This document shows positions 980 to 59,645 of a DNA stretch of 64,000 nt, piece after piece. The stretch spans positions 1,556-65,555 of the forward strand of contig CAKZKA010000267.1 in the NCBI GenBank assembly GCA_937120965.1, in the 5' to 3' direction. The position numbers were made by a program, and so were the translations under genes. Source of the stretch: an uncultured Chloroflexota bacterium. GTDB lineage: Bacteria; Chloroflexota; Chloroflexia; Chloroflexales; Chloroflexaceae. A model generated the notes under the pieces. The model saw nothing but the letters and a program-made list of their open reading frames with translations. It was not told the DNA's origin and did not search any database. How positions within the stretch are numbered: the first letter of the stretch is position 1; every line of letters starts with the position of its first letter.

Positions 980-1981
980 ATGCTTACACCTGGCGACGTC
1001 AAGCGCGCCTTACAACATTATGACCTCGGAACGGTCCGCTCAGTGCGTCCAGCATCGCATGGCGTGGTCAACGAAACCGCATTCGTGGAAACGAGCAGCG
1101 GGCGCTACGTGGTGCGTCGCAACCAGCGGGCCACGGGGTGGGGCAGGCTCGAACTGCGGCACCAGTTGCTGAACTGGCTGCGCCTTCGGGCCTTTCCCAG
1201 CCCGCGCCTGATCCCCGCGCGCAATGGCGACAACGCCGTTGAAGTAGACGGCCGCGTCTTCGAGGTCTTCACCTTTATTGACGGCGACGAGTTCAATATC
1301 GACCGCCCGGCGCACATCAGCGGCACGGGCAGCATCCTCGCCCGCTACCACCGCACTGTCGAAGACTTCCCCTACCTGCCGCCGCCCGAAGCGCCACGCT
1401 ATAATCCCGGTTCGCTCCTCGGCCTGATCGAACGCCTGATGCAGCGCGACCTGATGGGCGAACTCTCCGAACCCCTGAACTGGTACGACCGCCGCGCTGC
1501 CCATCTGCGCGCGGTGCTGCCCACCGAGGCCTACAGCGCGCTGCCACACGTGCTCATTCACGGCGATATGCACCGTGATAATGTCATCTTCCGCGGCGAC
1601 ACTGTGGCCGCCCTGATCGACTTCGACCAGGTGACGGTAGATGCTCGCATCGTTGACCTGGCCGACGCCCTGGTGGATTTTACCGTCGGCGCCACTCCGC
1701 CCGACTGGTTCCCCTGGGGCGTGTACGCCGGCCCGCTCGACCAGCAGCGCGCTGCGTTGCTGCTGGAAGGCTATCATACCATCGCGCCGCTAACCAGCGC
1801 TGAGTGCAAGGCCCTGCCCGTGCTCGTCGAAGTGATCTGGCTCCAGGGCAACCTGCGCCGGGTGCTCGGCACCGCCGACGCCGAACCCGACTACCACCTC
1901 GAAGTGCTTCAGCAAGGTCGCCGGCTGTCCCTGTGGCTCCAGGAGCATCCCGACGTCCTTGCGGTCGAGGGGCAAGCCTGA
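980..1981 (+). CDS. Phosphotransferase family protein (APH / homoserine kinase type II-like)
   Basis: In-frame ATG at 980 preceded by GAGGAG. LIHGDMHRDNVIF and LIDFDQ match the HxDxxxxN catalytic and DFD metal-binding motifs. The first 110 codons of track ORF 650..1981 lie in repeat DNA. Confidence 0.7.
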   Translation: MLTPGDVKRALQHYDLGTVRSVRPASHGVVNETAFVETSSGRYVVRRNQRATGWGRLELRHQLLNWLRLRAFPSPRLIPARNGDNAVEVDGRVFEVFTFIDGDEFNIDRPAHISGTGSILARYHRTVEDFPYLPPPEAPRYNPGSLLGLIERLMQRDLMGELSEPLNWYDRRAAHLRAVLPTEAYSALPHVLIHGDMHRDNVIFRGDTVAALIDFDQVTVDARIVDLADALVDFTVGATPPDWFPWGVYAGPLDQQRAALLLEGYHTIAPLTSAECKALPVLVEVIWLQGNLRRVLGTADAEPDYHLEVLQQGRRLSLWLQEHPDVLAVEGQA

Positions 1982-2227
1982 TGTGAACATAGCCCGCCCA
2001 CGGGAGGCTTTGGGAGGGCGCAGTCCTCCCAGGAAACAACCCGCGCGCGGGGAGGGTTTGGGAGGGCACAGCTCTCCCAGGAAACAACCCGCCCGCGGGA
2101 GGGTTTGGGAGGGCACAGCCCTCCCAGGAAACAACCCGCCCGCGGGGAGGGTTTGGGAGGGCGCAGCCCTCCCAGGAAACAACCCGCCCGCGGGGAGGGT
2201 TTGGGAGGGCGCAGCCCTCCCGGAAAC
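1979..2227 (+). repeat. Terminal motif TGATGTGAACAT followed by five tandem 47-48-bp G4/hairpin (H) units
   Basis: Units start at 2002, 2050, 2097, 2145 and 2193. Each reads GGGAGGGTTTGGGAGGGC-N4-CCCTCCCAGGAAACAACCCGCCCGCG. Confidence 0.9.
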
Positions 2228-2263
2228 GTCTTTTACCTCTCCCGTCAACGAGGAGCAGTACCT

Positions 2264-2776
2264 ATGTCAGAACGACACGAATATACCGACGAAGAATGGG
2301 CAACCCTCATTGGCGCGCCCATCGCTGTGATCGCCGCCGTGATCGGCGCCAGTCCCAGCGGGCCGATTGGCATTTCGCAGGAGGTGGCCGCGGCGGTGCG
2401 CGCCTTCGAGGACGCCGCCGAAACCCGTCGCTCTAACCCACTCATTGCCTCAATGCTGATTACCCTCCGCGATCGCTTCAACGCCTATATCGGCAAAAGC
2501 CCCGACGATCCTGCCGTAGCGCAGGTTGACATCTTTGCCCTGGGCCGCGACCCCGCTCGCGCCGTGGCCGGCATCGGCGAGGCCGGCGCCCTGCTGGCGC
2601 GCAAGGCCCCCCCCGACGTGGCCGCGGAGGTGCGCGAATGGCTGGTTGACCTCAGCAACCAGGTGGCCCACGCCGCCGTCGAGGGCGGGTTCATGGGCAT
2701 GGGCGGCGAACGAGTCAACGAACGCGAACGGAATATCCTCGCCGAGATCGCTACCGCCCTGGGCGCCGAAGCATAA
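2264..2776 (+). CDS. Hypothetical protein (170 aa)
   Basis: ATG at 2264 lies 8 nt after AGGAG. The upstream part of track ORF 2105..2776 is the tandem repeat array. The coding-like composition starts at MSERHEYTDEEW. No family recognised. Confidence 0.55.
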   Translation: MSERHEYTDEEWATLIGAPIAVIAAVIGASPSGPIGISQEVAAAVRAFEDAAETRRSNPLIASMLITLRDRFNAYIGKSPDDPAVAQVDIFALGRDPARAVAGIGEAGALLARKAPPDVAAEVREWLVDLSNQVAHAAVEGGFMGMGGERVNERERNILAEIATALGAEA

Positions 2777-2845
2777 TCGCTGTTTATGCGGCGAAGCTGC
2801 ATAAAGACGAGATGAAAACAGGTTTGTTATGTACACCCTCCCGGT

Positions 2846-2898
2846 GGGGAGGGCTTGCCACCCCCGCAGGCAGGGGGGTGGGGAAACCCGGTTTTCCC
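2846..2898. repeat. H-like hairpin plus an imperfect 19-bp palindrome
   Basis: CCCTCCCGGTGGGGAGGG, then GGGGAAACCCGGTTTTCCC at 2880-2898. Confidence 0.6.
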
Positions 2899-2926
2899 TG
2901 ATATTCATACCAGCCGCAAGGGTGTC

Positions 2927-6054: not shown

Positions 6055-6300
6055 GGGGGAACCCGGTTCCCCCATGTCCCAACCGCTATTGGGAGCGGCT
6101 GGCGCCCCAGCCTGCAGGGGCGCGGTTCGACAAGCTCACCACAGGTGGGGAAACCCGGTTTCCCCGATGTTCACCTCAGCCGTCCATGCGGCTGCGCCGC
6201 ACAACGACAAAATGGGTTTTTCTTGGGAGGGCGTAGAGGCGCGGCGCTGCCGCGCCTCTACGCCCAAACCCTCCCGCGCGGCCTATTTTCACATCAGGAG
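6055..6300 (-). repeat. Composite repeat block
   Basis: Palindrome variant at 6055-6073. CCAACCGCT..AGCGGCTGG hairpin. GCGGTTCGACAAGCTCACCACAGGT. Perfect palindrome at 6148-6166. ATGTTCACCTCAG. TCCATGCGGCTGCGCCGCACAACG. A 17-bp-stem hairpin at 6229-6265. ATTTTCACATCAG. Confidence 0.85.
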
Positions 6301-6309: not shown

Positions 6310-7326
6310 TTGGCCCGTCAACGCGACCATTCTCACCCAACCGACATATTCGGGCTGCCTGAAGGACTGCTCGCCGCGATTGTCGCCGCGCTGCTCCTCA
6401 TCATAGTCTTCGCGCTGCACGTTTTTGCCACCCCTATGCCGCCTCCCGAGCGCTGGGCCAGCCTGACTGCCTTCAGCTTCCTGGCCCTGGGGTTAACCCT
6501 GCCCGGCTGCGCCGCGCTGTACGACGGGCTGGGCCGCGTGGTGCGTCGCGACCGGCGTGCCCTGGCCGCGCTGCTGGCAGTGGCGCCAACCCTCTACGCA
6601 GCCTACGCGTTTGCGGTGCGCGAATTGAATGGCATGGGGTTGCTCTCGGCGATCCTCTTCACCGTCGTGCCGGCCCTGGCCTCTGGCCTGGCCCGCGACC
6701 GTCGTCAACCCACCCTTGCCGACGCTGTGGCTCTGGCCTACCTCGGCCTGGCCCTGGGCCTGCGCCTGGTTCCGCACCTCACCCTGCCGCAACAGGGCGG
6801 GCTGGTGGGCTTCTTCGGGTTGACCATGGCACCGCTGCTCCTGATCCTCTTCGCGGCGCGGGGCTGGCCTGGCCCGGGCTTCACCTGGCACCTCAGCGGG
6901 CGCGAATTGCGTGATGCTCTGGTCGCGGGCCTGCTGGCAGCCCTTGTGGCCCTCGGCGCCAGCGCCCTTATGAACGCGACCCGGCCTGCGGGTGCCCTGC
7001 CCTCGGCCGGTACATTCATTATGTCAATCATTACCAGCTACTTCTTCGTGGCCTTGCCCGCCGAGGTGCTGTTGCGCGGCGGCGTGCAGAACGGTCTGGC
7101 TCGGGCCCTGGCCGGGCGCGCCGGCCCCCGCGCGCCCTGGATAGCCCTCGCCGCGACGACGGCTCTTTCGGCGCTCGCCGGCATCGCGCCGGGCGGATGG
7201 CCGCTGGGACCGGTCGCCGGAGGCATCGCCGGCCTTGCCGCCGGCTGGAGCTACCTGCGCACCGGCAAGCTCACCGCCGCAGCCCTCGCCAGCGGGCTGG
7301 TGGTGCTGGGGACGAGTCTGCTGTGA
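6310..7326 (+). CDS. Polytopic membrane protein, weak CPBP (CAAX protease)-like C-terminal region
   Basis: Multiple hydrophobic helices. PAEVLLRGG resembles the EExxxR motif, but the His motifs are not evident. The start is uncertain (TTG at 6310 or ATG at 6436). The TGA stop lies inside the repeat motif TGTGAACA. Confidence 0.45.
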   Translation: MARQRDHSHPTDIFGLPEGLLAAIVAALLLIIVFALHVFATPMPPPERWASLTAFSFLALGLTLPGCAALYDGLGRVVRRDRRALAALLAVAPTLYAAYAFAVRELNGMGLLSAILFTVVPALASGLARDRRQPTLADAVALAYLGLALGLRLVPHLTLPQQGGLVGFFGLTMAPLLLILFAARGWPGPGFTWHLSGRELRDALVAGLLAALVALGASALMNATRPAGALPSAGTFIMSIITSYFFVALPAEVLLRGGVQNGLARALAGRAGPRAPWIALAATTALSALAGIAPGGWPLGPVAGGIAGLAAGWSYLRTGKLTAAALASGLVVLGTSLL

Positions 7327-7394
7327 ACAGGGGAAACCGGGCAATCCCACACCCCACCTCGAGACAATGGTCGGAGTCCACCTGTAATGAGTGA

Positions 7395-12829: not shown

Positions 12830-13185
12830 CACCATTCGCATTCGTTTATTCGTTTCCCATTCGTTGGCGTATTTCGTTTCCCCTGAGGTGAAAATATGGG
12901 GAAATCGGGTTTCCCCACCCCCCTCCCTGCGGGGAGGCGCCCGGTTCCCTCCCCCAGCGGGGGAGGGCCAGGGAGGGGGCGGCCCTCCCGAAGACGCCCT
13001 ATGTTCATCGCGGCGTTGTGCGCCATGCGTATGACCGTCTAAGATGAAAACGGGTTTTTCTCAGGAGGGCGTAGAGGCGCGGCGCCGCCGCGCCTCTACG
13101 CCCAAACCCTCCCGCGCGCGGGCTATGTTCACGCTGGACGCCCATGCGCGGGGCGCACAACGCCAGCATGCAACCGTGGGAGGGC
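12830..13185 (+). repeat. Composite repeat block
   Basis: ACGAAT-rich module at 12830-12867. CTGAGGTGAAAAT. Palindrome at 12898-12916. About 110-bp module GGCGCCCGGTTCCCTCCCCCAGCGGGGGAGGGCCAGGGAGGGGGCGGCCCTCCC...CGGCGTTGTGCGCC. A 17-bp-stem hairpin at 13067-13103. ATGTTCAC. Confidence 0.85.
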
Positions 13186-13188
13186 TAA

Positions 13189-13290
13189 TACCAATTACCG
13201 TTGATGATACCGCATTGCTTGAAGCGGTTTTAGGCGTTATGCTGCCCAGCGTGGCAATCCACAATCCAAAATCCAAAATCTAAAATGGTA
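13189..13290 (-). mobile_element. 102-bp MITE, subfamily A, flanked by a TAA/TAA duplication
   Basis: Ends TACCAATT...AAAATGGTA. TSD TAA at 13186-13188 and 13291-13293. It is inserted in the loop of a GGGAGGGGG/GCCCTCCC repeat hairpin. Confidence 0.8.
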
Positions 13291-13293
13291 TAA

Positions 13294-13455
13294 CCCCCTC
13301 CCTGACCCTCCCCCGCTGGGGGAGGGAACCGGGCGCCTCCCCACCGGCAGGGGGTTGGGGCAACCCGGTTTCCCCGGTTCCCAACCGCTGGTGGGAGCGG
13401 CTGGCGCCCCACCGGCAGGGGGTTGGGGCAACCCGGTTTCCCCATATGTTCGCAT
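13294..13455 (-). repeat. Composite repeat block with two palindromes
   Basis: Remainder of the GGGGGAGGG module. Palindromes GGGGCAACCCGGTTTCCCC at 13357-13375 and 13425-13443, separated by the CCAACCGCTGGTGGGAGCGGCTGG hairpin. ATATGTTCGCATCAG. Confidence 0.85.
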
Positions 13456-13564
13456 CAGGGTGCGTTACCGCGGACCGCGCGCATACGCTACCGGCGCGCT
13501 GACCAGCGCCGATCTGCGGTATGATAGAATGAGCAATCGCCAGACAGACCAGCAGGAGACCCCC

Positions 13565-25046: not shown

Positions 25047-25730
25047 ATGTTGCTTGAGACACACAGGGCCGAAATCGAGACCATTCTCTCACGCTACGAC
25101 TCGCGGCGCAGCGCGGTGCTGCCGCTGCTCTACCTGGCGCAAGACACCTACGGTTACCTGACGGAGGCGGCCATTCGCGAGGTTGCCGCCATCCTTGGCC
25201 TGCCGCCCACCGATGTCTTTGAAGTGGTTGGCTTCTACACTCTGTTCTACAACCGCCCCGTGGGCACGTGGGTGCTCCAGGTCTGCGACGATGTGCCCTG
25301 CTGTTACCTCGGCGCCGAGGAACTGATCAGTGCGCTCAAGCAGAGCCTGGGGATCGCCGAGGAGCAGACCACCAGTGACGGGATGTTCACCCTCCAGCGT
25401 GTCAAGTGCCTGGCCGCCTGTGACCGGGCGCCGGTGCTCCAGGCTAATCTCGATTATGTCTACGATGTGACGCCGGAGCGGGTCAACGCGCTGCTGACGA
25501 ACCTGCGCGCCCGCGCCGCCGAGGCCCGCCAGCGGGGCGTGAGCGGGCGCTTCGCCGAGGACTTCGAGTGGGGACCTGACGGCGCCCTGACCCTGATCGA
25601 CCGCGCCGCGCCCTACCGGCCCCGCCAGTTTCCCGCGGCAAGCCCGCCCGCCCCGCTAGAGCCGGAACCCGTGCCCGAAGCCGATGCTGGCCACGACCGG
25701 CCCACGGACCGCAAGGCGTCGCCGCTCTGA
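25047..25730 (+). CDS. nuoE: NADH-quinone oxidoreductase subunit E
   Basis: Thioredoxin-like 2Fe-2S subunit: VCDDVPCCYLGAEEL...KCLAACDRAP. It has a Pro/Ala-rich C-terminal tail. The stop TGA is embedded in the CTGAGGTGAAC repeat motif. Confidence 0.85.
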   Translation: MLLETHRAEIETILSRYDSRRSAVLPLLYLAQDTYGYLTEAAIREVAAILGLPPTDVFEVVGFYTLFYNRPVGTWVLQVCDDVPCCYLGAEELISALKQSLGIAEEQTTSDGMFTLQRVKCLAACDRAPVLQANLDYVYDVTPERVNALLTNLRARAAEARQRGVSGRFAEDFEWGPDGALTLIDRAAPYRPRQFPAASPPAPLEPEPVPEADAGHDRPTDRKASPL

Positions 25731-25815
25731 GGTGAACCTGTGGGGAAACCGGGTTTCCCCACGCCCCTCCCTGAGGGAAGGGTTTGGGAGGGCGCAGCCC
25801 TCCCCACAAACGACT
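25728..25815 (+). repeat. Terminal motif, perfect palindrome and H unit in the nuoE-nuoF spacer
   Basis: CTGAGGTGAACCTGT, GGGGAAACCGGGTTTCCCC (25742-25760), GGGAAGGGTTTGGGAGGGCGCAGCCCTCCCC. Confidence 0.85.
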
Positions 25816-25846: not shown

Positions 25847-27181
25847 ATGGGCCTGAGTGAGCATATTGTGATGCGGGAACTCGACGTTCCCGAGATCAAC
25901 GACTTCGAGGTGTACCGACGCCACGGCGGTTGGGAAGCCTATCGCATGGCGCTCAAGGAGAAGAACCCCGCCGATATTGTGGCCATGGTCAAAGAGTCGG
26001 GACTGCGGGGCCGCGGCGGCGCCGGGTTTCCCACCGGCATCAAGTGGGGTTTTCTGCCCAAAGGCGTCTATCCACGCTATTTGCTCTGTAATTGTGATGA
26101 ATCGGAGCCGGGCACGTTTAATAATCATCAGATTATTGACCGTAATCCTCATCAGTTAATTGAGGGAGTGGCGCTTTCGGCCTTTGCGATTGAGTGTCAC
26201 ACTGCCTACATCTATATGCGCGGGGAGTTCGCCGCGGCGGCAATCACGCTCGAACGGGCCATCGCTGAGGCCTATCGCGCCGGCTTCCTGGGCCGGAACA
26301 TCCTGGGCACGGGCTTTGACCTCGACATCTACGTGCATCGGGGCGCGGGGGCGTACATCTGCGGCGAGGAGACGGCGCTCATGGAGTCGCTGGAGGGAAA
26401 GATCGGCCAGCCGCGCCTCAAGCCGCCCTTTCCCGCCGTGGCCGGGCTGTATGGCAAGCCGACGATTATTAACAATGTCGAGACGCTGGCCAATGTGCCC
26501 CGCATTGTCGAGAAGGGCGTGGCCTGGTACCGCAGCCACGGCACCGAGAAGAGTCCCGGCACCAAGTGCTTTTCGCTCTCCGGCCACGTCAACCGCCCCG
26601 GCAACTACGAACTGCCCTTCGGCGTGCCGCTGCGGGAGTTGATCGAAAGCCCTGAGTATGGTGGCGGGATGCGCGGCGGGCGCCCGGTGAAGATCATCAT
26701 TCCCGGCGGGGCTTCCGCCCCCTGGCTGACCCACGAGCACCTCGATGTGCCCCTCGATTACGAGAGCGTCGCCGCCGCCGGCTCAATGCTCGGTTCCGGC
26801 GCGGTGATTGTGCTCGATGATACAGTGAAGGCGCCCCACGTTGCCTATAAAATGGACGAGTTCTTCAAGCACGAGTCCTGTGGTAAGTGTACTCCCTGCC
26901 GCGAGGGCACGCACTGGCTGGTCCGGGTGCTCCACCGTATCGCCGAAGAGGGTCACGCCACGCCGGAGGATATTCCCACGTTGCACGGTATTTACAATCA
27001 GATGGCCGGGAATTGCTTCTGCCTCCTGGGTGAGAGCGCCGTGATGCCGATCAAGAGCGCCCTGACGCTCTTCCCCGAGGAGTTCGAGGCGGTCGTCGCG
27101 GCCAGCCGCCGGCTGCCGCACGGCAATGGGCAGCGCGATGGCAAATCCGGGCCGGTGATCCCCCTGTCGGCCAGGCACTGA
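25847..27181 (+). CDS. nuoF: NADH-quinone oxidoreductase subunit F
   Basis: GLRGRGGAGFPTGIKW (FMN site), CNCDESEPGTF, HRGAGAYICGEETALMESLEG, ESCGKCTPCREG (N3 cluster). Confidence 0.9.
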   Translation: MGLSEHIVMRELDVPEINDFEVYRRHGGWEAYRMALKEKNPADIVAMVKESGLRGRGGAGFPTGIKWGFLPKGVYPRYLLCNCDESEPGTFNNHQIIDRNPHQLIEGVALSAFAIECHTAYIYMRGEFAAAAITLERAIAEAYRAGFLGRNILGTGFDLDIYVHRGAGAYICGEETALMESLEGKIGQPRLKPPFPAVAGLYGKPTIINNVETLANVPRIVEKGVAWYRSHGTEKSPGTKCFSLSGHVNRPGNYELPFGVPLRELIESPEYGGGMRGGRPVKIIIPGGASAPWLTHEHLDVPLDYESVAAAGSMLGSGAVIVLDDTVKAPHVAYKMDEFFKHESCGKCTPCREGTHWLVRVLHRIAEEGHATPEDIPTLHGIYNQMAGNCFCLLGESAVMPIKSALTLFPEEFEAVVAASRRLPHGNGQRDGKSGPVIPLSARH

Positions 27182-27290
27182 GGCTGGTCTGATGGGCGCA
27201 TGGGGAAACCGGTTTTCCCCATCCCCCTGCCTGCCGGGGAGGGTTTGCGATGGCGCAGCCCTCCCGGCAACCAACCTGTGTTCTGGCAGG
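27179..27290 (+). repeat. Palindrome (1 indel) and degenerate H unit in the nuoF-nuoG spacer
   Basis: GGGGAAACCGGTTTTCCCC (27202-27220), then GGGGAGGGTTTGCGATGGCGCAGCCCTCCCGGCAACCAACC. Confidence 0.75.
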
Positions 27291-35127: not shown

Positions 35128-35131
<4 letters not shown>

Positions 35132-35625
35132 GGTGAACATAGCCCGCCCGCGGGAGGGTTTGGGAGGGCAAAGCCCTCCCAGGAAACAACCCGCCAGCGG
35201 GGAGGGTTTGGGAGGGCGAAGCCCTTCAACGGGTTTCACCTGCTCCGGGATAGGCTTCCTGGGACGCAGAGGGGAGATGGGCCAACGAATGGGAAACGAA
35301 TAAACGAATGCGAGCGGCGTGTCTGACTCTGAGGTGAACATAGCCCACCCACGGGAGGGTTTGGGAGGGCGAATTCCTCCCAGGAACCAACCCGCCAGCG
35401 GGGAAGGTTTGGGAGGGCGAATTCCTCCCAGGAACCAACCCGCCAGCGGGGAAGGTTTGGGAGGGCGAAGCCCTCCCAAGAACAATACTATGTTCATTCT
35501 GGCGTTGTGCGGCACAGCCGCATGGACGGATGATGTGAACATACGGGGAAACCGGGTTTCCCCACCTGCGGTGAGCCTGTCGAACCGCACCCCTGCCAGT
35601 GGGGAGGGTTTGCGAGGGCGCAGTC
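35128..35625 (+). repeat. About 500 bp of repeats filling the nuoL-nuoM spacer
   Basis: Two CTGAGGTGAACATAGCCC heads (35128, 35329). Five H units, two with a GAATTC loop. ACGAAT-rich module at 35282-35313. GGCGTTGTGCGGCACAGCCGCATGG module. Perfect palindrome at 35545-35563. CTGCGGTGAGCCTGTCGAACCGC module. One degenerate H unit. Confidence 0.9.
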
Positions 35626-44964: not shown

Positions 44965-45461
44965 CCGAGGTAAAAATAGGGGAAACCGGGTTTCCCCAGG
45001 CCCCTGCCTGGAGGGGCGCCAGCCGCTCCCACCAGCGGTTGGGAAATGGGGAAACCGGGTTTCCCCACCTGTGGTGAGCTTGCCGAACCACGCCCCTCCC
45101 TGCGGGGAGGCGCCCGGTTCCCTCCCCCAGCGGGGGAGGGCCAGGGAGGGGGCGACCCTCCCAGAGATACCCCTGGTTTCATCGCGGCGTTGTGCGCTCC
45201 GCGCATGGGCGTCTAAGTGAAAATAGGTGGGGAAACCGGGTTTCCCCAGGCCCCTGCCCGGGGGCGGATTTGCACGCTTCTCGCCACGGGGGCAGGGGCA
45301 ACCCCCTCGCCCCACGCCCCTCCTGGCAGGAAGGGTCCGAGCGGGTGTAGCGTGCTCAGGCCCTCCCGTTCAAGAACGCACGGGATGCCGAGGTGCGGAG
45401 ATGAAGGCCATGGTGGGATGCGCAACAGGGGCGTGGTACAGCCGGGATTCCCGTATGTTCA
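44965..45461 (+). repeat. Composite repeat block between the CHAD and CYTH genes
   Basis: Perfect palindromes at 44979-44997, 45048-45066 and 45229-45247. AGCCGCTCCCACCAGCGGTTGG hairpin. GGTGAGCTTGCCGAACC module. About 110-bp GGGGGAGGG module. Degenerate palindrome plus TATGTTCAG at the CYTH stop. Confidence 0.85.
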
Positions 45462-46061
45462 GAGCGTGAGGGCGCGTTCCAGCTTGCTGCGCGGCTCAGG
45501 CGTCAGCGCGACGAGTGCGGCCAGTTCACCAGCCAGGGCGCTGAGATCGGCAGTTGTGCCGGCCTCACACAGTTCAATCTCCACCTCGGTGAAAGGTCGC
45601 TCGCGCGCATTGGCCCGCATCACGCCGCGATCGAGACAGAGCTCGGCAACCGGGGCGCCCTCCCGCGTGATGTGCAGCACGCGCCGCTCGGTGCGGATCG
45701 CCACGCGGGGGAGCAGAGGCGCGCCAGCGGTAAGGGCGAGCGCCAGGTCCCGCGCGACGCCGGGGGGCCAGGTTTCCGGATCCGGATTGGCGCCGGGGAA
45801 CTCGAACTCGGCCCGGCGATGCACCCCGTCATCGCTGACGTCGGCAGGCCCCTTGAGGGTGATCAACGAGCGTTCGCCGGTGCGCCGCACCCGCAGGCCA
45901 TGGCGCGCCGCCGCGAGCCGTCCATCGGCGGTGTCGTAGTAGACGTTTTCTTGCATTTCCGGGACCGGCTCCGGCGTGACCACGTAAGGGCCCAACTGCT
46001 TGAGCGAGGCGAGGGTCTCCAGGTCAGCGCTGCTTACAACGTATTTTGCTTCAATCTCCAT
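45459..46061 (-). CDS. CYTH-domain protein (triphosphate tunnel metalloenzyme)
   Basis: MEIEAKYVV is the ExExK signature. 200 aa. LRVRRTGERSLITLKGP. Confidence 0.75.
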   Translation of the reverse strand: MEIEAKYVVSSADLETLASLKQLGPYVVTPEPVPEMQENVYYDTADGRLAAARHGLRVRRTGERSLITLKGPADVSDDGVHRRAEFEFPGANPDPETWPPGVARDLALALTAGAPLLPRVAIRTERRVLHITREGAPVAELCLDRGVMRANARERPFTEVEIELCEAGTTADLSALAGELAALVALTPEPRSKLERALTL

Positions 46062-46065: not shown

Positions 46066-46692
46066 TTGTTCGCGGAAACCGGGGTTTCCCGTACTACTCC
46101 CTGCCCGGCGGGAGGGTTGCGAGCGTTCTGTCCTCTTCCAGCCCTCTGCTGGGGGAATGCGCCTGACTCCCTCTCCAGGCGGGGGAGGGTCCGGGAAGGC
46201 GAAGCCCTCCCAGGAGAATCGCTCTTCAGTCATCCATGCGGCTGCGCCGCACAACGACAAGATGAACATGGATTTTTCCTGGGAGGGCGCAGCCCTCCCA
46301 AACCCTCCCCGCTGGCGGGTTGGTTCCTGGGAGGGCTGCGCCCTCTCAAGCCCTCCCGCGGGCAGGCTATTTTCACCTCAGGCACCATTCGCGGGGCGCA
46401 CAACGCCGCGATGACCATAGGGCGTCTTCGGAAGGGCCGCCCCCTCCCTGGCCCTCCCCCGCTGGGGGAGGGAACCGGGCGCCTCCCCGCAGGGAGGGGA
46501 TTGGGGAAACCTGGGTTCCCCGTATGTTCACCTCAGGCGGTCATGCGCATGGCGCACAACGCCGCGATGACCATGGGGCGTCTTTGGGAGGGCCGCCCCC
46601 TCCCTGGCCCTCCCCCGCTAGGGGAGGGAACCGGCCTCCTCCCCGCAGGCAGGGGAATGGGGAAACCCGGTTTCCCCGTATTTTCACCTCAG
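46066..46692 (-). repeat. Composite repeat block including two tandem ~156-bp units
   Basis: Degenerate palindrome at 46072-46090 and two reverse-oriented H units at 46270-46360. Tandem units at 46381-46535 and 46536-46692 each consist of the GGGGGAGGG module, a palindrome (46503-46521 and 46659-46677) and (T)ATGTTCACCTCAG. Confidence 0.85.
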
Positions 46693-46944
46693 TCCTGTCA
46701 TACGGGGCGCGGCCGTAAGAATATCTATCAGGATACCATATTTTCCTGAATCAGGATCGAAACAGCGTTTCCGCGACAGAGCCGTTGCAACGTCGCCGGG
46801 GCAAGCCTCGAACCGGAAACCGCGCGTGGAGGCGGCTACACCGCCTCAAACCCTGGCGTCGGAGGCAGATCTGCAACCGCCCCGGGTTCCGGGAGGGCCG
46901 TGCCCTCCCGGACCAGCTTTTGAAGAACGCGCCGGACGCATGCC

Positions 46945-49330: not shown

Positions 49331-50824
49331 ATGCTTATTCGTCTGGCAATCGCCTGGATGCTGGGGATCGTCATTGCCGAGCAGGCCCGCCCCCCAACGG
49401 GCTGGCTGTGGGCTGCGGCGGGGGTGGGGCTGGTCATGGCGCTGGCCGTCCGGGGTCAGCAGCGAGGCACACTACGCCTGGCGGCCCTCGCGCTGCTGTG
49501 CGCGGCTCTGGGCGGGCTACGCTACATGGGCACGCTGCCGGCCCTGGGGCCGCAGAGCGTGAGCAGCCTGAGCGGGCGGGGCGAGGTCGTGCTCACGGGC
49601 AGCGTGGCCGGCGAGCCACGCCGCAGTGAGGAGCAGCAGCGCGTGGTGCTCCAGGTCGAGACGGCCACGGTAGAGGGAGCGACCGCGGCCTACGAGGGGC
49701 TGGTGCTGGTGGTATTACCGCCCTACCCTGCCTATGCCTACGGCGATCGGCTCGAGGTTCGGGGCGCGTTGCGCCGTCCGCGGGGCGCAGAGCGGCCCGG
49801 CGAGTTCGATTACCGGGCCTACCTGGCCCATCGCGGCATCTTTGTGATGATGACCAAACCCGAAGAGGCGCGCCGGCTGACGGGCCAGGACGGTCTGGCG
49901 CCCTTGCGGGCCGTGCTTGCCTTTCGCGCTCATTGCCAGGCGGTGCTGCTGCGCACCTTGCCCGAACCCCAGGCCGCCCTGGCAATCGGGGTCGTTCTTG
50001 GCATTCAGTCAAGCATCCCCGACGAAGTGTACCGAACCTTTTCGATCACCGGTACGAGCCATATCCTGGTAGTATCGGGATGGAACTTCACGATTGTGGC
50101 GGGGATGCTGGGAGCGCTGGCGGCACGCCTGCGCCTGGGGCGAGGGGCAACCCTGGCGCTGGCGCTGGCGGTGATGTGGGTCTATGCCGTGTTTACCGGC
50201 GCCTCGGCGGCGGTGCTACGGGCGGCAGCCATGGCCAGCCTGGCCGCCGTGGCCCGCGCCACCGACCGCAGCAGCGAGCCGTGGCATCTGCTCCTCGGCG
50301 CGTGCTGGCTGATCACTCTGGCAGACCCACACACGCTCTGGGACCCGGGGTTCCAGCTCTCGGCGCTGGCAACGGCCAGCCTCTTCGCCTACGCCACGCC
50401 GGTGGCGGCGTGGTTTAACCGGCGGCCCTTCAACTGGCCGATGATGGCTCCGGTCACAGAGGCACTGGTGGCAACATTCGCTGCCCAGGCGCTCACCCTG
50501 CCGCTGATCTTATACGCCTTTGGCAACCTCTCGCTGGTGGCGCCACTGGCGAATATCGTGATCGTGCCGGTGGTGCCATTCGCTATGGCTCTGGGCGCAC
50601 TGGCGCTGGTAGGCGGCCTGATCTGGCTCCCGTTGGGGCAGTGGCTGGCCCTGGGGGCATGGCTGCCCTTCACCTGGATCGCCGAGGGGGCGCGCCTTCT
50701 GGCCATGCCACGCTGGGCCAGCGCGCAGGTGCCACCATTCCCGCTGTGGCTGCTCCTGGGTTGCTATGCCGCCATCGGGCTGCACTGGTGGAGCAGGCTA
50801 CGCACCGCGGGAGAGAGCGCCTGA
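49331..50824 (+). CDS. comEC: ComEC/Rec2-family DNA internalisation channel protein (no beta-lactamase domain)
   Basis: ATG at 49331 after GGAGGGAG. Polytopic membrane protein. FSITGTSHILVVSGWNFTIV resembles the competence-domain motif. The stop TGA is embedded in CTGAGGTGAACAT. Confidence 0.7.
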   Translation: MLIRLAIAWMLGIVIAEQARPPTGWLWAAAGVGLVMALAVRGQQRGTLRLAALALLCAALGGLRYMGTLPALGPQSVSSLSGRGEVVLTGSVAGEPRRSEEQQRVVLQVETATVEGATAAYEGLVLVVLPPYPAYAYGDRLEVRGALRRPRGAERPGEFDYRAYLAHRGIFVMMTKPEEARRLTGQDGLAPLRAVLAFRAHCQAVLLRTLPEPQAALAIGVVLGIQSSIPDEVYRTFSITGTSHILVVSGWNFTIVAGMLGALAARLRLGRGATLALALAVMWVYAVFTGASAAVLRAAAMASLAAVARATDRSSEPWHLLLGACWLITLADPHTLWDPGFQLSALATASLFAYATPVAAWFNRRPFNWPMMAPVTEALVATFAAQALTLPLILYAFGNLSLVAPLANIVIVPVVPFAMALGALALVGGLIWLPLGQWLALGAWLPFTWIAEGARLLAMPRWASAQVPPFPLWLLLGCYAAIGLHWWSRLRTAGESA

Positions 50825-51165
50825 GGTGAACATACGGGGAAACCAGGTTTCCCCATCCCCCTCCCCGAGGGGAGGGTTTGGGAGGGCTTCGCCCTCCCGA
50901 GAATAATTATTTTCATTCCGGCGTTGTGCGGCGCAGCCGCATGTGAGGTGAACATACGGGGAAACCGGGTTTCCCCATCCCCCTCCCTGCGGGGAGGGTT
51001 TGGGAGGGCTTCGCCCTCCCGAGAATAATTATTTTCATTCCGGCGTTGTGCGGCGCAGCCGCATGGATGACTGAGGTGAACATAGGGGGAAACCGGGTTT
51101 CCCCATACCCCCGCCCACGGGAACGTGAACATATGGGGCAACCGGGTTTCCCCTCGCCCCCTCCC
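50821..51165 (+). repeat. Tandem composite units (periods 122 and 128 bp) downstream of comEC
   Basis: GGTGAACAT heads at 50825, 50947, 51075 and 51125. Palindromes at 50836-50854, 50958-50976, 51086-51104 and 51135-51153. The first two units are near-identical through GGGAGGGCTTCGCCCTCCCGAGAATAATTATTTTCATTCCGGCGTTGTGCGGCGCAGCCGCATG. Confidence 0.9.
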
Positions 51166-51230: not shown

Positions 51231-51776
51231 ATGACGAACGCGATCGATCTTACGCCATTGATCCAGGCCATTCACGCGGCGCCCCAACGCCTGGTGTATG
51301 TTTTCGCCGGAGCAGGGAGCCTGGCGCTGCACTGGCTTCACGCCGTCGCCGGCTCGTCGCGCACGCTGCTCGAGGCCCGCGATTGCTACGCGCCCCGCAG
51401 CCTGGCGGTCGTCCTTGGTGCGCCCCCGGCCCGTGCTGTCAGCGTCGAGACGGCCAGCGCAATGGCCGATTGGGCCTGGAAGTATGCCGCCAGCCTGGCC
51501 GAAGGCCCCTGGCCGCTGCTCGGGGTGGGTTGCACCGCGGCGATCGTCACCGACCGGGCGCGCCGGGGCGCCGATCGGGCGGTGGTCGCCGTGCGCTCGG
51601 CCAGCGCTACGCGGATCTATGAGCTGCTCCTCGCCAGGGAGCGCCGCGACCGGGCCGGCGAAGAGGCGCTGATCAGTCGCCTGGTCGTCCTGGCGATCGC
51701 CGAAGCATGCGGTCTGGGAGCAGTGCATCTGGACCTGGAGCCGGGTGAGGCGCTGCATCTGGCGGGGATGGGCTGA
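51231..51776 (+). CDS. Hypothetical protein, distant CinA/PncC-like pattern
   Basis: AGSSRTLL...AVSVETASAMA...GVGCTAAIVTDRARRG loosely follows the CinA C-terminal domain pattern. The start is uncertain (ATG 51231 or GTG 51198). The stop TGA is embedded in CTGAGGTGAACA. Confidence 0.4.
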   Translation: MTNAIDLTPLIQAIHAAPQRLVYVFAGAGSLALHWLHAVAGSSRTLLEARDCYAPRSLAVVLGAPPARAVSVETASAMADWAWKYAASLAEGPWPLLGVGCTAAIVTDRARRGADRAVVAVRSASATRIYELLLARERRDRAGEEALISRLVVLAIAEACGLGAVHLDLEPGEALHLAGMG

Positions 51777-51860
51777 GGTGAACAGAGGGGAAACCGGGTT
51801 TTCCCACCCGCGGTGAGCCTGTCGAACCGCGCCCTCCCGATGGGGCGGGTTCGGGAGGCC
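51773..51860 (+). repeat. Terminal motif, palindrome and GGTGAGCCTGTCGAACCGC module
   Basis: CTGAGGTGAACAGA, GGGGAAACCGGGTTTTCCC (51787-51805), ACCCGCGGTGAGCCTGTCGAACCGCGCCCTCCC. Confidence 0.8.
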
Positions 51861-54450: not shown

Positions 54451-54553
54451 CAACCAGGTTGACGAGCCACGAGGCCCAAACGTCGGCATAGCGTGGGCTT
54501 GTTCATCCAGGCGACTCGGACGAATGGAGAGCCAGACGAGTATAACAGGTATC

Positions 54554-55558
54554 TGTACTGCTACAATATGTTAGCGCACCTCTGGTGGGTGTATTGACTG
54601 AATGTTGTGTGCAGGTGATCAATGCATTATCACCCAAAAGCGGCGTTGACCCAGGTGCAACGCGCGCGAATCCAACAATTGTATCGTGAAGGAATGAGCC
54701 AATCCGCCCTGGCGCGTCAGTTTGGCGTGCATCGCCGCACCATCCAGCGTTGGGTTGGCCGGACGGATACCACGGATCGCTCTGGTGGACCGCGCACCCA
54801 TGGGCGGCGCGTGGTGACGGAGACGTATCGCCAGGCCGTGATTGCCGAACGGCAGGCGCATCCGCAGGATGGTCCCAAACGGATTGCGCACGAACTCCGG
54901 GCGCGCTTCCCCACGGCCAATACGGCAACCGTGTGGCGCATCCTGAAGGACGCCGGCTTGACGCAGCGCCCGCCCAAAAAAACGGCAGCGGCGTCCGATC
55001 CCGGTCGGACGCCATCGGGTGCAACTGGACATCCGGGAATTGCCAGCGATTCGCGGGGGTCATGGGCGGGAATACCAGATCAGCCTGATTCATCTGCGCA
55101 CCCGGATGAAGTACTCGGAAATCCATCCACGCGCCACCAGTCACCGGATTGCCGGAGTGCTGCAGCGGGCGATCGGCCGATTGCCCCCGTTTCATCTGGT
55201 GGTGACGGATAATGCGATGGTCTTTACCATGGCGCATACCCCGCATCCGGAGCGGCGTACGGCGTTCGAACGCACCATCACGGCCCTGGGCGTGCGGCAT
55301 TGGCGGATCAAACCGCGATCGCCGTGGCAAAACGGGATCATTGAACGGAGCAATCGGACGGATAATGCGGAATGTTTCCATCAGCAGGAGTTCTCCTGTT
55401 CCGAACATCGTCGGTATGTGCATCGGTTATGGGAGATGTACTACAACGATCACCGGCCACATCAAGGGCTTGATGGCGCCACACCGTTGGCGATCTTCCG
55501 TCGGTACTATCCGATCCATGCCGCTGCCATGGGTGCGCTAACATAGTGAAGCAGTACA
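54554..55558 (+). mobile_element. IS481-family insertion sequence (1005 bp) with 26-bp IRs and a 6-bp target-site duplication
   Basis: IRL TGTACTGCTACAATATGTTAGCGCAC (54554-54579) matches the reverse complement of IRR (55533-55558) at 24 of 26 positions. Perfect direct repeat GGTATC at 54548-54553 and 55559-55564. It encodes an HTH plus rve DDE transposase. Confidence 0.8.
54622..55546 (+). CDS. IS481-family DDE transposase, split over two frames at an A7 run (54976-54982)
   Basis: Frame 1 gives the HTH part (GMSQSALARQFGVHRRTIQRW). Frame 2 is open from 54962 and reads PKKRQRRPIPVGRHRVQLDIRELP...VVTDNAMVF...WQNGIIERSNRT (D, D, E). The frames join if one A is removed from CCCAAAAAAACGG. Confidence 0.75.
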
Positions 55559-55604
55559 GGTATCCTTTAAGCCCGCCAGCAGAGATGACCAGGGGGGCCG
55601 GACG

Positions 55605-55811
55605 GCATCGCCACGGGGCGGTGGGGCGCGCCGGGGTGGCGCGGGGGCGACCGCGGCATTGCCGCGGGGCGGCGGGGCGCGGGGGCAACGGCGGGGCGTG
55701 CAGCATTGCCGCGGGGCGGCGGGGCGCGGGGGCGACGGCGGGGGTCAGGCCGAAGCATTCGCGTGGGCGGCCAGGGTGGCCCCGATGGGGGTGGGCGCGA
55801 ATGCTTCGGCC
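55605..55811 (+). repeat. G-rich tandem repeat (periods 51 and 47 bp) followed by a 16-bp-stem hairpin
   Basis: GCATTGCCGCGGGGCGGCGGGGCGCGGGGGC units start at 55605, 55656 and 55703. GGCCGAAGCATTCGCG (55748-55763) pairs with CGCGAATGCTTCGGCC (55796-55811). Confidence 0.8.
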
Positions 55812-55966
55812 CTACGGCGGGCGCCGACCGGACCCGCGGTTCACGCGGCATGCCGCGGGGCGGCGGGGTGGCACGGGACCGCCCCGGCATCCCAACGCCC
55901 CACCGGGTCGTCACTCACCGGCGACCCGGCGGGGCGTGCCGGTAGAGGCGCCCCGGTGGGGCGTCT

Positions 55967-58018: not shown

Positions 58019-58295
58019 AAGCTCCTCCGCGGCGTGGTTGGTTGGAATGCCATTTCGGTGTGCAGCGTGCTGCCATAGCCTTGCCGTGGGCTCTGGCTGT
58101 AGCGCATAGACGGGGCTCGTTCAATGCCAGTTGGTGTAACCGGTTAGCAGCACACGGTAAAAAACGCGCTGCCACCACGAAGGCAGCACGCAGGCGACCG
58201 TTGCCGCGGCCTTGTTCTACCCTGAGCGCCCCCGGGGCCACAAGGGTTTCTAGATTACAATAAGATTACAATTTGCAATAGACAGCTTTGCAGCT

Positions 58296-58600
58296 CCTGA
58301 GGTGAAAATAGCCCGCGCGCGGGAGGGTTCGGGGTGCCGGGGGGGGCGGGGTTGGCCCCCGCCCCAAATAGCCCGCGTGCGGGAGGGTTCGGGAGGGCGA
58401 GGCCCTCCCAGGAAACAACCCGCCAGCGGGGAGGGTTTGGGAGAGCTTCGCCCTCCCAAGAATAGGTATTTTCATTCCGGCGTTGTGCGGCGCAGCCGCA
58501 TGGATGACTGAGGTGAACATACGGGGAAACCGGGTTTCCTCAACCCCCTCCCTGAGGGGAGGGTTTGGGAGGGCTTCGCCCTCCCAAAAACAAACCTGTT
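58296..58600 (+). repeat. Composite repeat block between the PQQ-like gene and eutC
   Basis: CTGAGGTGAAAATAGCCC head. Three H-type units. GGCGTTGTGCGGCGCAGCCGCATGGATGA. CTGAGGTGAACATAC. Palindrome at 58523-58540. One more H unit. Confidence 0.85.
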
Positions 58601-58609
58601 TTCATCTCG

Positions 58610-59395
58610 TTAATCGAGCAGGGCAGCCGCGCCATCACGCTCGGCTCGCTCATCCTTCAGCGCGACGCCGCTCAGTTTGAGCCGTCGCGCTTCGCTCATC
58701 AGATAGATCAGGGTCTGGGCGGCGGCATCGTAACTCTGACCGCGGGCATGGATGTTGGAAATGCAGTTGCGTTCGGCATCGGTGCGCCCGGGGCGCGGAT
58801 CGTAGGTGAGATACACTCCCAGGCTATCGGCGACGCTCAGACCCGGGCGTTCACCGATCAGGATAGCAGCCTGCCGGGCGCGAAGCAGGCTCCCGATCTC
58901 GTCGGCGATGGCCACACGGCCCTGATGCACCACGACAATCGGCGCCAGGCGCCAGCCCAGGCCCTGCAGGGCTCCGGCTACACGGGTGGCAAGGGGCACG
59001 GCGTGGCGGTGCACTGCGAGGGCCGAGAGACCGTCGGCGATGACCAGGACGGCGTCGTAGGCGTCCCCGTCGGCGGGGGCGTGGGGAGGAAGGGCCGCCC
59101 GCGACGCCTCGCTCAGACGCCGGCCCAGGTCGGGGCGCTTCAGATAGGTTGACCGGTCAGGGGCGGCGCTGTGAACGATCAGCACGGGCAGATCGGTAGC
59201 GGCTGCGGCGGCGGCCACGCCTGCGGCGTCAAAGGGCAGATGTACGGCGTCACGGGCGCGGGCGTGGTCGTACTGAAAGGCCAGTTGGGCAGCGGTGGGC
59301 AGGCTATCGCCGGCCCGCCCCAGGGCGATGCGGGCGTTGGTGTAGCGGCGCAACCCCTGCCACAGGTCGGCAGAGGGTAGTGTTTCGTCAGACAC
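58610..59395 (-). CDS. eutC: Ethanolamine ammonia-lyase light subunit
   Basis: GTG at 59395 lies 6 nt after GAGGAGG. TNARIALGRAGDSLPT, LKRPDLGRRL, IGERPGLSVADSLGVYLTY, ERNCISNI. Confidence 0.85.
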   Translation of the reverse strand: MSDETLPSADLWQGLRRYTNARIALGRAGDSLPTAAQLAFQYDHARARDAVHLPFDAAGVAAAAAATDLPVLIVHSAAPDRSTYLKRPDLGRRLSEASRAALPPHAPADGDAYDAVLVIADGLSALAVHRHAVPLATRVAGALQGLGWRLAPIVVVHQGRVAIADEIGSLLRARQAAILIGERPGLSVADSLGVYLTYDPRPGRTDAERNCISNIHARGQSYDAAAQTLIYLMSEARRLKLSGVALKDERAERDGAAALLD

Positions 59396-59439
59396 AGGGA
59401 ACCTCCTCGGCGAGAGGCGCCATTCGTGGAACGTACAAC

Positions 59440-59645
59440 ACCTCCCCACAGGCAGGGGCGTGAGGAAACCCGGTTTCCCCCTATGTTCACCTCAGTCATC
59501 CATGCGGCTGCGCCGCACAATGCCAGAATGAAAATATTTGTTCTTGGGAGGGCTTCGCCCTCCCAAACCCTCCCCGCTGGCGGGTTGTTTCCTGGGAGGG
59601 CGAAGCCCTCCCAAACCCTCCCGTACACGGCCTATTTTCACATCA
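59440..59645 (-). repeat. Composite repeat exactly filling the eutB-eutC spacer
   Basis: Palindrome at 59462-59480. TATGTTCACCTCAG. TCATCCATGCGGCTGCGCCGCACAATGCC. Two reverse H units. CTATTTTCACATCAG, whose TCA is the complement of the eutB stop. Confidence 0.9.

Follow-up and report, generated by a model that had tools for sequence, protein, structure and literature searches.

Repeat termini and stop codons in the window

The window analyzed here is the whole 64,000-nt stretch of contig CAKZKA010000267.1 (G+C content 65%), and its source is a hot-spring Chloroflexaceae bacterium. The intergenic DNA of the window is packed with dozens of GC-rich hairpin modules, which are repeated in variable order and form units with a conserved terminus, CTGA[G/T]GTGAACAT. 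An earlier note on this DNA had claimed that the terminus supplies the stop codons of about ten genes, and had named eleven. All eleven stop codons were correctly located and the identities of the genes were upheld by Pfam, but the claim itself stands for about eight of them (six with a full and two with a partial terminus), as the stops of nuoF, an HD-CHAD gene and a gene for a secreted protein proved to be native. To obtain a wider sample, metagenomes were scanned with the pattern GTGAACATANGGGGAAACC, from which the first six letters of the motif were left out; the scan yielded 120 loci with a total of 1.08 Mb (hereafter 1.1 Mb), and related contigs or loci that were compared with the window are given L-numbers. 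In this sample, the TGA of the repeat doubles as the stop codon in about a fifth of C-TGA genes (that is, genes in which C precedes a TGA stop), and the protein is not shortened. The modules of the repeat family are as follows.

Hairpin module H1: GGGGAAACCGGGTTTCCCC
Hairpin module H2: CCCCTCCCTGAGGGGAGGG
Hairpin module H3: TTTGGGAGGGCGCAGCCCTCCCAGG
G module hairpin: TATTTTCATTCYGGCGTTGTGCGGCGCAGCCGCATGGAYGR
Further module: 48-nt tandem unit

The motif CTGAGGTGAACAT (with at most two mismatches) was found in 23 copies in the window, compared with 0.79 expected from shuffled sequences. Roughly nine of them stand inside arrays, behind a G module. For six genes (APH-like, nuoE, nuoL, comEC, CinA-like and eutB), translation stops at the first TGA of a complete terminus, behind which hairpin modules follow; six of the ∼13 outer-edge copies coincide with a stop codon, compared with ∼0.05 coincidences expected for 23 copies placed anywhere in intergenic DNA (P ∼1e-11). 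These sites are listed below together with the two partial cases and nuoF.

APH-like gene (650-1981): terminus at 1978..1990, plus strand, CTGATGTGAACAT; stop TGA 1979-1981
nuoE: terminus at 25727..25739, plus strand, CTGAGGTGAACCT; stop TGA 25728-25730
nuoL: terminus at 35128..35140, plus strand, CTGAGGTGAACAT; stop TGA 35129-35131
comEC: terminus at 50821..50833, plus strand, CTGAGGTGAACAT; stop TGA 50822-50824
CinA-like gene (51198-51776): terminus at 51773..51785, plus strand, CTGAGGTGAACAG; stop TGA 51774-51776
eutB: terminus at 59634..59646, minus strand, CTGATGTGAAAAT; stop TGA 59643-59645
CYTH gene: shortened terminus at 45450..45462, minus strand, CTGAACATACGGG; stop TGA 45459-45461; degenerate H1 hairpin
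CPBP/Rce1-like gene: variant terminus at 7318..7345, plus strand, CTGCTGTGAACAG; stop TGA 7324-7326; degenerate H1 hairpin
nuoF: 27178..27201, plus strand; stop in native CACTGAGGCTGGT, degenerate terminus CTGATGGGCGCAT only from 27189

A 48-nt tandem hairpin array (1993-2227) lies downstream of the APH-like stop, the spacer between nuoE and nuoF is filled by H1, H2 and H3, the nuoL terminus opens a repeat array of ∼500 nt (35132-35640), and a 122-nt tandem array (50822-51116) has the comEC terminus as its first unit. A repeat array of 247 nt (59396-59642) keeps eutB and eutC apart. With regard to the two partial cases, the CYTH gene ends CTC TGA ACATACGGGAATCCC, in which CTGA is fused straight to ACATA, and the CPBP-like gene ends CTG CTG TGA ACAGGGGAAACC, which has one mismatch to CTGATGTGAACAG and places the stop on the second TGA of the terminus (hereafter register 2, as opposed to register 1 for the first TGA).

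The three remaining stops were rejected as repeat-supplied. The end of nuoF, CAC TGA GGC(T/C)GGT (CACTGAGGC(T/C)GGT), is common to the window and L007, and the repeat begins 8 nt further on (CTGA in the window, CTAA in L007). The HD-CHAD gene (stop 43338-43340) reads GGG TGA ACGCAGG without repeat modules behind; unlike the window, the relative L009 does have the repeat at this stop. The stop of the secreted protein (46945-46947) reads CGC TGA GGCATGCGTCC (CTGAGGCATGCG), which is unique DNA conserved in L054 and L076.

It should be noted that the other repeat arm (the complement of TATTTTCAT..., read as ...GATGAAAAC...) also abuts stop codons (58610-58630 and 15533-15550). The TAA stop of eutC (58610-58612) is abutted by an array end, ...CCTGTTTTCATCTCG, and reads GAT TAA CGAGATGAAAACAGG, and the Orn/DAP decarboxylase gene (14229-15536) ends CTC TGA TGAAAACGG, which is of the other-arm type. 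The stop association may therefore reach beyond the CTGA terminus motif.

Organization of the repeat family

At one end, a unit has the tag CTGA, which is followed by [G/T]GTGAACATA, and the foot of the hairpin lies 11 nt past the tag. The linker of 11 nt (GGTGAACATA plus N) contains a second, frame-shifted TGA, hence the two registers; the statement in the earlier note that the motif has TGA in two of three frames is correct. At the opposite end of complete units and arrays, the G module hairpin (...GCAGCCGCATGGAYGR) is followed by 7 nt and then by CTGA again. In the 1.1 Mb, 326 copies of the terminus were found, and C occupied position -5 from GTGAAC in 88% of them, position -6 being random. 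The five bases ahead of GTGAAC in 132 unique copies were mostly CTGAG (70 copies) or CTGAT (33; together 103/132), irrespective of the flank. Since conservation starts abruptly at the C whatever the flank, CTGA is the true end of the repeat. In a subtype the terminus starts with CTAA or CTAG, and the next base is then C in 15 of 20 copies, compared with 3 of 246 otherwise (P = 1e-17).

Among the copies having a CT-initial tetranucleotide past the G module, 111 of 160 have CTGA. No consensus terminus stands next to 25 of these 111; many of the 25 abut unique DNA and a few precede a degenerate terminus. (C)TGA also separates tandem units, which form arrays of 48, 122 and 156 nt with mixed 47- and 48-nt periods, and at least five hairpin types could be distinguished. 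The terminus pairs imperfectly with a TATTTTCATTCYGG arm, and a clean inverted terminus (...TCAG at the right end) was present in only two of the outer copies scanned. In its full form, the terminus was seen in no lineage beyond the closest clade (the window, L007 and L009). The palindrome composed of the G module and the terminus folds at -21.2 kcal/mol on the motif strand versus -13.2 kcal/mol on the complement, and the motif strand was favored in 42 of 42 copies. This bias (8 kcal/mol, from G-T/G-U asymmetry) indicates single-strand use, as RNA or DNA. Four further sites in the window illustrate the arrangement.

6167-6179 and 6285-6297, minus strand: terminus pair; the 6167 copy is internal, after a G-module hairpin, and the 6285 copy is at the outer edge
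58297..58609, plus strand: eutC-antisense array, termini at 58297 and 58508; the far end abuts the eutC stop
12883..13458: composite cluster bounded by inverted termini at 12883 (plus) and 13446 (minus), in a divergent intergenic region; no gene stop takes part
46229..46695, minus strand: array of ∼460 nt including 156-nt tandem units, missing in L054

Several other features of the repeats were observed. The terminus holds a Shine-Dalgarno-like GAGGTGA, and in some copies (GAGGTGAACATATGGGG) ATG follows 5 nt on, for example at 12883-12900, 51125-51140 and 61094-61109 (minus strand). A small open reading frame (ORF) or coupling cassette within the repeats was considered and dropped, as no consistent frame continues past the terminus ATG. 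Where a divergent gene lies in front of the terminus, the end of the repeat frequently runs right up to the ribosome-binding site (6285-6312 in the window and many metagenome loci), and the junction of CTCAG with GAG makes AGGAG 8-15 nt ahead of the start codon; the CPBP-like gene is an example, as the terminus at 6285-6297 abuts its ribosome-binding site and its start (CATCAG joined to GAGTAGCGCGCCTTG). On the strand opposite to the terminus, H1 is followed by TATTTTCA at 44979-44997, 45228-45248, 46659-46685 and 61318-61344, which looks like an intrinsic terminator for transcription from the other side.

Dependence on the type of stop codon

For the related DNA, 609 distinct gene stops were called with a simple caller based on G+C content at third codon positions (GC3). 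The distribution of distances between terminus and stop, which the earlier note had named as a test of its claim, showed a sharp spike exactly at the stop. In register 1, the terminus was found at 26-28 of 139 C-TGA stops and at practically none of the others (26/139 versus 0/470, P = 3e-18). In register 2, it was found at 16 of 102 G-TGA stops and at none of the 234 other TGA stops (P = 2e-9). No terminus was found at any of the 368 stops that are neither C-TGA nor G-TGA, TAA and TAG genes included (0/273). An upstream gene in the same direction was present for 103 outer-edge copies, and 45 of these copies overlap its stop (28 exactly in register 1 and 17 otherwise); past the stop, there are five copies at 0-9 nt, six at 10-29 nt, nine at 30-59 nt and one at 60-99 nt.

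Copies lying 1-100 nt downstream were equally frequent behind (C/G)TGA stops (11/241) and other stops (18/368), ∼5% in each case (P = 1), whereas the total occupancy within 100 nt was 22% for (C/G)TGA genes and 5% for others. As the rate at 1-100 nt is the same across stop types, the exact-junction class is additional to the nearby copies and does not consist of nearby copies that were trimmed. A comparison between the occupancy of CTGA at stops and at non-stop intergenic sites (odds ratio 4.6) was not relied on, because the caller misses genes and the 'intergenic' class is thereby inflated.

Two of the explanations in the earlier note should be seen in this light. The suggestion that the elements target gene 3' ends is supported in that placement is sequence-specific, the terminus lying over matching (C)TGA or (G)TGA stops only; it goes too far in that ∼78% of outer-edge copies are away from stops, a divergent gene being opposite 80 of the 203. 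The sequence pattern suggests that the target would be a short sequence, an NTGA core that is targeted or regenerated, rather than gene ends as such. Counter-selection of insertions elsewhere surely acts, but by itself it cannot produce a spike that sits precisely at the junction and varies with the type of stop.

C-termini of orthologous proteins

The third explanation, that native C-termini were lost or replaced, does not hold as a rule. For six genes (nuoE, nuoL, CinA-like, CYTH, HD-CHAD and an E2 acyltransferase gene), the stop lies at the same codon in orthologs with and without the repeat. The nuoE protein ends ...ASPL in the window, L007, L010, L013 and L014 and ...ASPW in L016, whether repeats are behind it or not. 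The nuoL relatives in the genome collection are all Chloroflexaceae/Chloroflexales metagenome-assembled genomes (MAGs), with protein identities from 98% to 55%. Their C-terminus is ...LLFTR in the window and L007 and ...LIFTR in L021 and L026; L007 reads CTAAC GTGAACAG and stops at TAA, and other relatives have TAG or TAA. The CinA-like gene of L076 (77% identical tail) has the same stop codon, GAT TGA, followed by a decayed copy, and CYTH has the same end codon in L010 and L008 (CTG TGA GGATGGGAAAACC and CTG TGA GTATGGGG, respectively). No truncation of eutB could be observed in comparison with the solved E. coli and Listeria enzymes, and a look-up of the eutB protein gave one identical context.

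The earlier note had regarded the same TGA context in repeat-free relatives as a sign of a shared stop context rather than insertion. Such a context does exist for nuoL, as L021 and L026, which are repeat-free in the sampled loci, end CGC TGA GCGG; we read it as a pre-existing target and not as a refutation.

The E2 acyltransferase (...LRALM) was used to examine register 2. Its Pfam domain extends to the last residues, and the C-terminal positions of the 120 homologs listed all agree to within one residue. Lineages with 83-92% protein identity (83-98% overall) carry the junction GCG TGA ACAT together with a hairpin. In one lineage CTG GCG TGA has become CTG ATG TGA, which makes a perfect terminus and replaces Ala by Met, the sole residue replacement seen. 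The presence of the junction across diverged lineages, together with the change from CTGGCG to CTGATG, shows that the junction is old and that its last codon can be overwritten by the repeat consensus.

Filled and empty sites and turnover of junctions

Two pairs of filled and empty sites were found. The array at 46229-46695 is missing from L054, which is 97-98% identical: the filled allele, given for the motif strand, has the sequence ...GACAGGA CTGA GGTGAAAATA ... GGATGA CTGA AGAGCG..., and the empty allele has a single GTGA (...GACAGGA GTGA AGAGAG...). In L007, the array between nuoF and nuoG runs from GGT CTAA CGTGAACATAG to ...GGACGG CTGA TAGAGCGC, and L010 and L031, which are without this array, have GTA CTGA CGCC at the place of the right junction. 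Judging from these sequences, both pairs and the CTGA past the G module would fit integration at an NTGA core that is left on both sides. The flanking core could come from a 4-bp duplication, from insertion beside a target where the far end of the element holds a corresponding cleavage site, or from site-specific recombination.

Modules behind a junction change rapidly. Contigs with 98-99% identical flanks carry differing modules behind the same junction (L143 versus L107 and L137 versus L109), and the modules at the nuoE junction also differ between the window and L007. The window nuoE protein recurs unchanged on hot-spring metagenome contigs and in MAG GCA_034432215.1. These contigs are 99.7-99.97% identical to the window, and the strain contigs L001-L006 differ from it solely in the copy number of the 48-nt unit, with no insertion polymorphism among them.

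Two other length differences were noticed. A 141-nt segment (15552-15692), which holds a terminus (15651-15663, minus strand) and hairpins, is missing in L064 (97-98% identical); its junctions (GGATCGCT joined to GGTGACGCG) are without CTGA and point to a different kind of event, possibly a deletion. In the nuoF-nuoG spacer (27316-27354), a 35-nt segment (CATGCGGATCGGGTCGGTGGTTACTCGTCA) lies between CTGG and CTGG after a G module and is missing in L007; it may be another small core-flanked insertion.

Origin of the repeat-stop junctions

The reading that we favor, and that we consider somewhat probable, is that a mosaic element resembling a repetitive extragenic palindrome (REP) or a MITE (miniature inverted-repeat transposable element) integrates at an NTGA core and regenerates it, such that a stop codon is a harmless landing site that may later undergo conversion. 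Units would integrate at NTGA, mostly CTGA and at times the GTGA internal to a terminus, and would leave the core on both sides, as the filled and empty sites partly illustrate. Where a C-TGA or G-TGA stop on the sense strand forms the core, the left junction would restore the stop and leave the C-terminus exact, so that the event would be near-neutral; the same insertion within a gene would be purged by selection. Repeat terminus and stop would thus share letters because integration at the stop core is near-neutral and intragenic events are selected out. Register 2 would arise from the second core, G-TGA, inside the terminus. An occupied junction would then persist for a long time, during which recombination between copies swaps the modules behind it and conversion can overwrite the last one or two codons and the stop with the repeat consensus, a step that is seen at two loci. 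A single-strand (HUH/RAYT-like) enzyme or a site-specific recombinase would go well with the layout of tag and hairpin and with the strand-specific folding. The CTGAG of nuoL in L021 and L026, which is there without the repeat, counts for a pre-existing target.

Several points weigh against this reading. Most clusters end on the right in something other than a G module with CTGA (CTGA was found at only 10 of 164 right cluster ends defined by k-mers) and thus do not delimit the mobile unit. Only two filled/empty pairs speak to the core duplication, and the cleanest empty site is GTGA rather than CTGA. The nearest relatives without an intact terminus have a base other than C before the stop (nuoE GTGA and CinA TTGA) or another stop (nuoL TAG/TAA); either these sites are decayed copies, or the element supplies its own C-TGA. 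Their sequences (nuoE of L010, GTGAGGCGCAACC; CinA of L076, TGACGATAAAGACGACCAGGTTTCTTCAT; nuoL of L009, TAAGGAACAGGAC) suggest decayed copies. The gene calls beyond the window depend on a crude, self-made caller. Finally, Pfam searches of the window ORFs revealed no transposase or recombinase near the repeats, and tblastn searches of the 1.1 Mb with IS608, ISDra2 and the E. coli RAYT (approximate query sequences) gave nothing below E = 0.6.

A serious alternative, although in our view an improbable one, is that the element brings its own C-TGA: the terminus would be copied onto gene ends by recombination or conversion and replace any native stop, with selection keeping the events that preserve the end of the frame. 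The nuoL gene points this way, as it has TGA with CTGAG in the window, TAA with CTAAC in L007 and TAG or TAA in others, and so does the E2 change from CTGGCG to CTGATG. Moreover, C never precedes the stop or core in the nearest relatives without the terminus (G in nuoE, T in CinA, T or G in nuoL and G at the 46692 array). On the other hand, this process offers no route by which a first copy could reach the exact stop without upstream homology, the repeat-free outgroups L021 and L026 already carry CTGAG at nuoL, and the 'repeat-free' comparators look decayed, hence their bases need not be ancestral. We therefore read overwriting by the element's own stop as homogenization of old, occupied junctions and not as their first colonization.

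Another process that may have contributed is nearby insertion followed by a microhomology deletion between the native (C/G)TGA and that of the motif, which would fuse the terminus with the stop. It would account for the restriction to C-TGA and G-TGA and for the conserved stop position; the repeats fill intergenic spacers from stop to stop, and the CYTH junction of CTGA with ACATA looks as if 5 nt had been deleted between the two TGAs of the terminus. However, such trimming would only shift copies from the near to the exact class and leave the total unchanged, and the total occupancy of (C/G)TGA genes shows an approximately fourfold excess, with the near class undepleted. Trimming is therefore not the main cause, and we regard it as unlikely in that role; shortened termini of the CYTH type may have originated in this way.

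It is similarly doubtful, as far as the present analysis allows a judgment, that the stop-proximal position reflects a functional optimum and not an insertion bias, that is, that hairpins near stops are kept by selection for mRNA stability or for tuning of termination or expression. The folding is specific to the sense strand, the first hairpin starts 11 nt past the stop in register 1 and 6 nt past it in register 2, and the E2 junction is kept at 83-98% protein identity while the modules behind it change. Effects of REPs near stops have also been reported in work cited in PMC12306157. Function fails to explain the match to the preceding base or the absence from all TAA and TAG genes, and the majority of outer-edge copies lie off stops, many of them facing a divergent gene. 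In addition, terminator-like sites (a hairpin plus T run) were not enriched (12 sites in 44000-62000 versus 10.9 expected).

Lastly, that CTGAGG is simply a favored native stop context in a GC-rich genome, or a chance match, is highly improbable and is refuted for the eight real cases: although five window genes end C TGA GG without a repeat (10817c, 18357, 30110, 46945c and nuoF) and three of the eleven original cases are indeed native, GG or TG comes next at 27.5% of the unoccupied C-TGA stops as against 27.6% of G-TGA stops, which shows that the overlap is not a general stop context, the real cases match on through GTGAACATA into hairpin modules, and the excess of motif copies over shuffled sequence is far too large.

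Going beyond integration at an NTGA core as such, one could imagine that the repeats represent an undescribed single-strand or site-specific system of Chloroflexota with a stop-containing core (CTGA, GTGA or CTAA) that uses stops as safe harbors, in which the stop triplet evolves with the repeats (TGA/TAA swap) and the hairpin modulates termination or mRNA stability in a fifth of C-TGA genes. This is a speculative proposal to which we give rather little credence.

Other repeats and insertions in the window

A second, unrelated family of ∼110 nt is AT-richer (ATACCATTTTAGATTTTAGATTTTGGATTGTGGATTGCCACGCTGGGCAGCACAACGC...GGTAATTGGTAT); its copies are 87-94% identical and often adjoin hairpin clusters. 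A third repeat (GGGGTAAGGCGTCACCCCG.GTGCGCGGGCGTCCCGCCCGCAATGGCCTGGATGCGGGCAAGATGCCCGCG...GGAGAAGTGTGAACAC) lies upstream of genes, and its end motif, GTGTGAACAC, is similar to the core of the terminus. These repeats, an insertion sequence (IS) and a GC-rich region are located as follows.

17180-17289, 37377-37486, 48890-48999 and 52791-52900, also 7440-7495 and 13190-13290: second family, ∼110 nt
561-649, 12505-12615 and 48995-49085: third repeat
54554-55555: IS of ∼1 kb with two overlapping ORFs (HTH at 54622-55212, rve/rve_3 at 55019-55546) and inverted repeats TGTACTGCTACAATATGTTAGCGCACC
55560-55960: very GC-rich degenerate tandem region (GCATTGCCGCGGGGCGGCGGGGCGCGGGGGC...) beside the IS and upstream of a PQQ-propeller gene

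The IS, the sole one in the window, is missing in L054 and L076, which are otherwise 96-98% identical, and the long minus-strand ORF at 54503-55423 is spurious. It was rejected as a parent of the hairpin repeats, as its 27-bp inverted repeats (TGTACTGCT...) are unrelated to them and its target duplication is GGTATC. L064, which is from another strain, carries a 1.7-kb insertion (776-2505 of that contig, corresponding to window position 17726) inside an FG-GAP/Big_5 gene (window 17322-18239), and no Pfam match was found for the ORFs of this insertion. The GC skew across the window (1-64000) is negative to ∼24 kb and positive from ∼32 kb; gene orientation or a replication landmark may lie behind the switch.

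Implications

Our data show, in a new phylum-level setting, that small repeats can saturate a compact genome without damage to proteins, and that an element end which contains a stop can sit flush against genes. Gene callers and annotators should expect repeat sequence inside the last codon or codons of a gene. Homogenization of repeats can rewrite the stop and the last residue; examples are the Ala to Met change of E2 and, for the stop, TGA to TAA in nuoL. The fast-changing arrays could serve for strain typing of hot-spring Chloroflexaceae. If the hairpins affect termination or mRNA decay, a shared post-transcriptional influence would extend to ∼20% of C-TGA genes, among them those for complex I subunits and the eutBC operon.

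Comparison with known systems

A literature search did not find these Chloroflexaceae repeats described; the library was limited and a description may exist. Rfam 15 gave no match in the window at or above the gathering score. H1, H2 and H3 precede purine-rich linkers on the sense strand, unlike intrinsic terminators.

Members of the IS200/IS605 family and their palindrome-associated derivatives insert 3' of a specific tetra- or pentanucleotide, have subterminal hairpins and no terminal inverted repeats, fold in a strand-specific way and hold a tetranucleotide like a cleavage site at the far end. The strand-specific folding of the present family and its layout (CTGA, 11 nt and hairpin at one end; hairpin, 7 nt and CTGA at the other) would be compatible with a derivative of such elements, but no Y1 transposase gene was found in the DNA searched, and a 4-bp duplication or a site-specific recombination core would likewise give an identical tetranucleotide at either side. 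Mycobacterial interspersed repetitive units (MIRUs) are intergenic units with small ORFs that overlap the stop and start codons of the flanking genes. The Chloroflexaceae units likewise lie between genes of an operon with their ends overlapping the upstream stop. A MIRU-type coding unit was rejected, as the frame is broken by the mixed 47- and 48-nt periods and the variable module order, and no overlap with a downstream start was seen.

Among MITEs and other small elements, QMITE1 and QMITE2 of Coxiella overlap gene 3' ends (PMC5896051), and Correia, ERIC and RPE elements have also been described (PMC2229807). In common with these, the present repeats are small, non-autonomous and mostly intergenic, are known from filled and empty sites, and overlap the last 1-50 bp of genes without a large change in protein size. 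The overlaps of those elements vary and alter C-terminal residues, whereas here the register is fixed at 3-4 nt and the C-terminus is preserved. Clear terminal inverted repeats, TA-type duplications and a parent IS would be further points of difference. As for a MITE-type duplication, two arrays are flanked by CT(G/A)A...CTGA with one (C/G)TGA at the empty site, a pattern of n = 2 that would also fit a core or cleavage site carried by the element.

The family also resembles REPs. Short GC-rich palindromes in high copy number and mostly extragenic position, which are characteristic of REPs, are present here. According to work cited in PMC12306157 (its ref. 17), E. coli REPs located at most 15 nt from a stop stall ribosomes and lower translation. 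In both cases, a stable hairpin starts within the ribosome footprint of the stop of the upstream gene; the E. coli effect was shown experimentally, and those REPs lie near the stop without a fixed register to it, whereas the Chloroflexaceae terminus does share one.

GTAG-tagged REPs that supply TAG stops have already been published (Di Nocera, De Gregorio and Rocco 2013, BMC Genomics 14:522, PMC3733652). The GTAG/CGTC REPs and bacterial interspersed mosaic elements (BIMEs) of that study share many features with our family: high-copy extragenic GC-rich hairpins, a tetranucleotide tag at one end, single, paired or mosaic-cluster arrangement, and G-T pairing that points to single-strand function. 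Here, the tag is CTGA (with TGA, rarely TAA) and stands 11 nt from the hairpin foot instead of abutting the stem, the mosaics are longer and draw on five or more types of hairpin, tandem arrays (48, 122 and 156 nt) and two registers occur, and the host belongs to the Chloroflexaceae. Membership in the described GTAG/CGTC super-families was rejected, since the tag differs and the layout is analogous only. The family behaves like a tagged REP/BIME or MITE, with a tag other than GTAG/CGTC, clean inverted ends in only two of the outer copies scanned, no RAYT gene found in the 1.1 Mb and no matching parent IS in the window; as the principle is already published for GTAG REPs, the gain here is one of breadth and detail, not a new concept.

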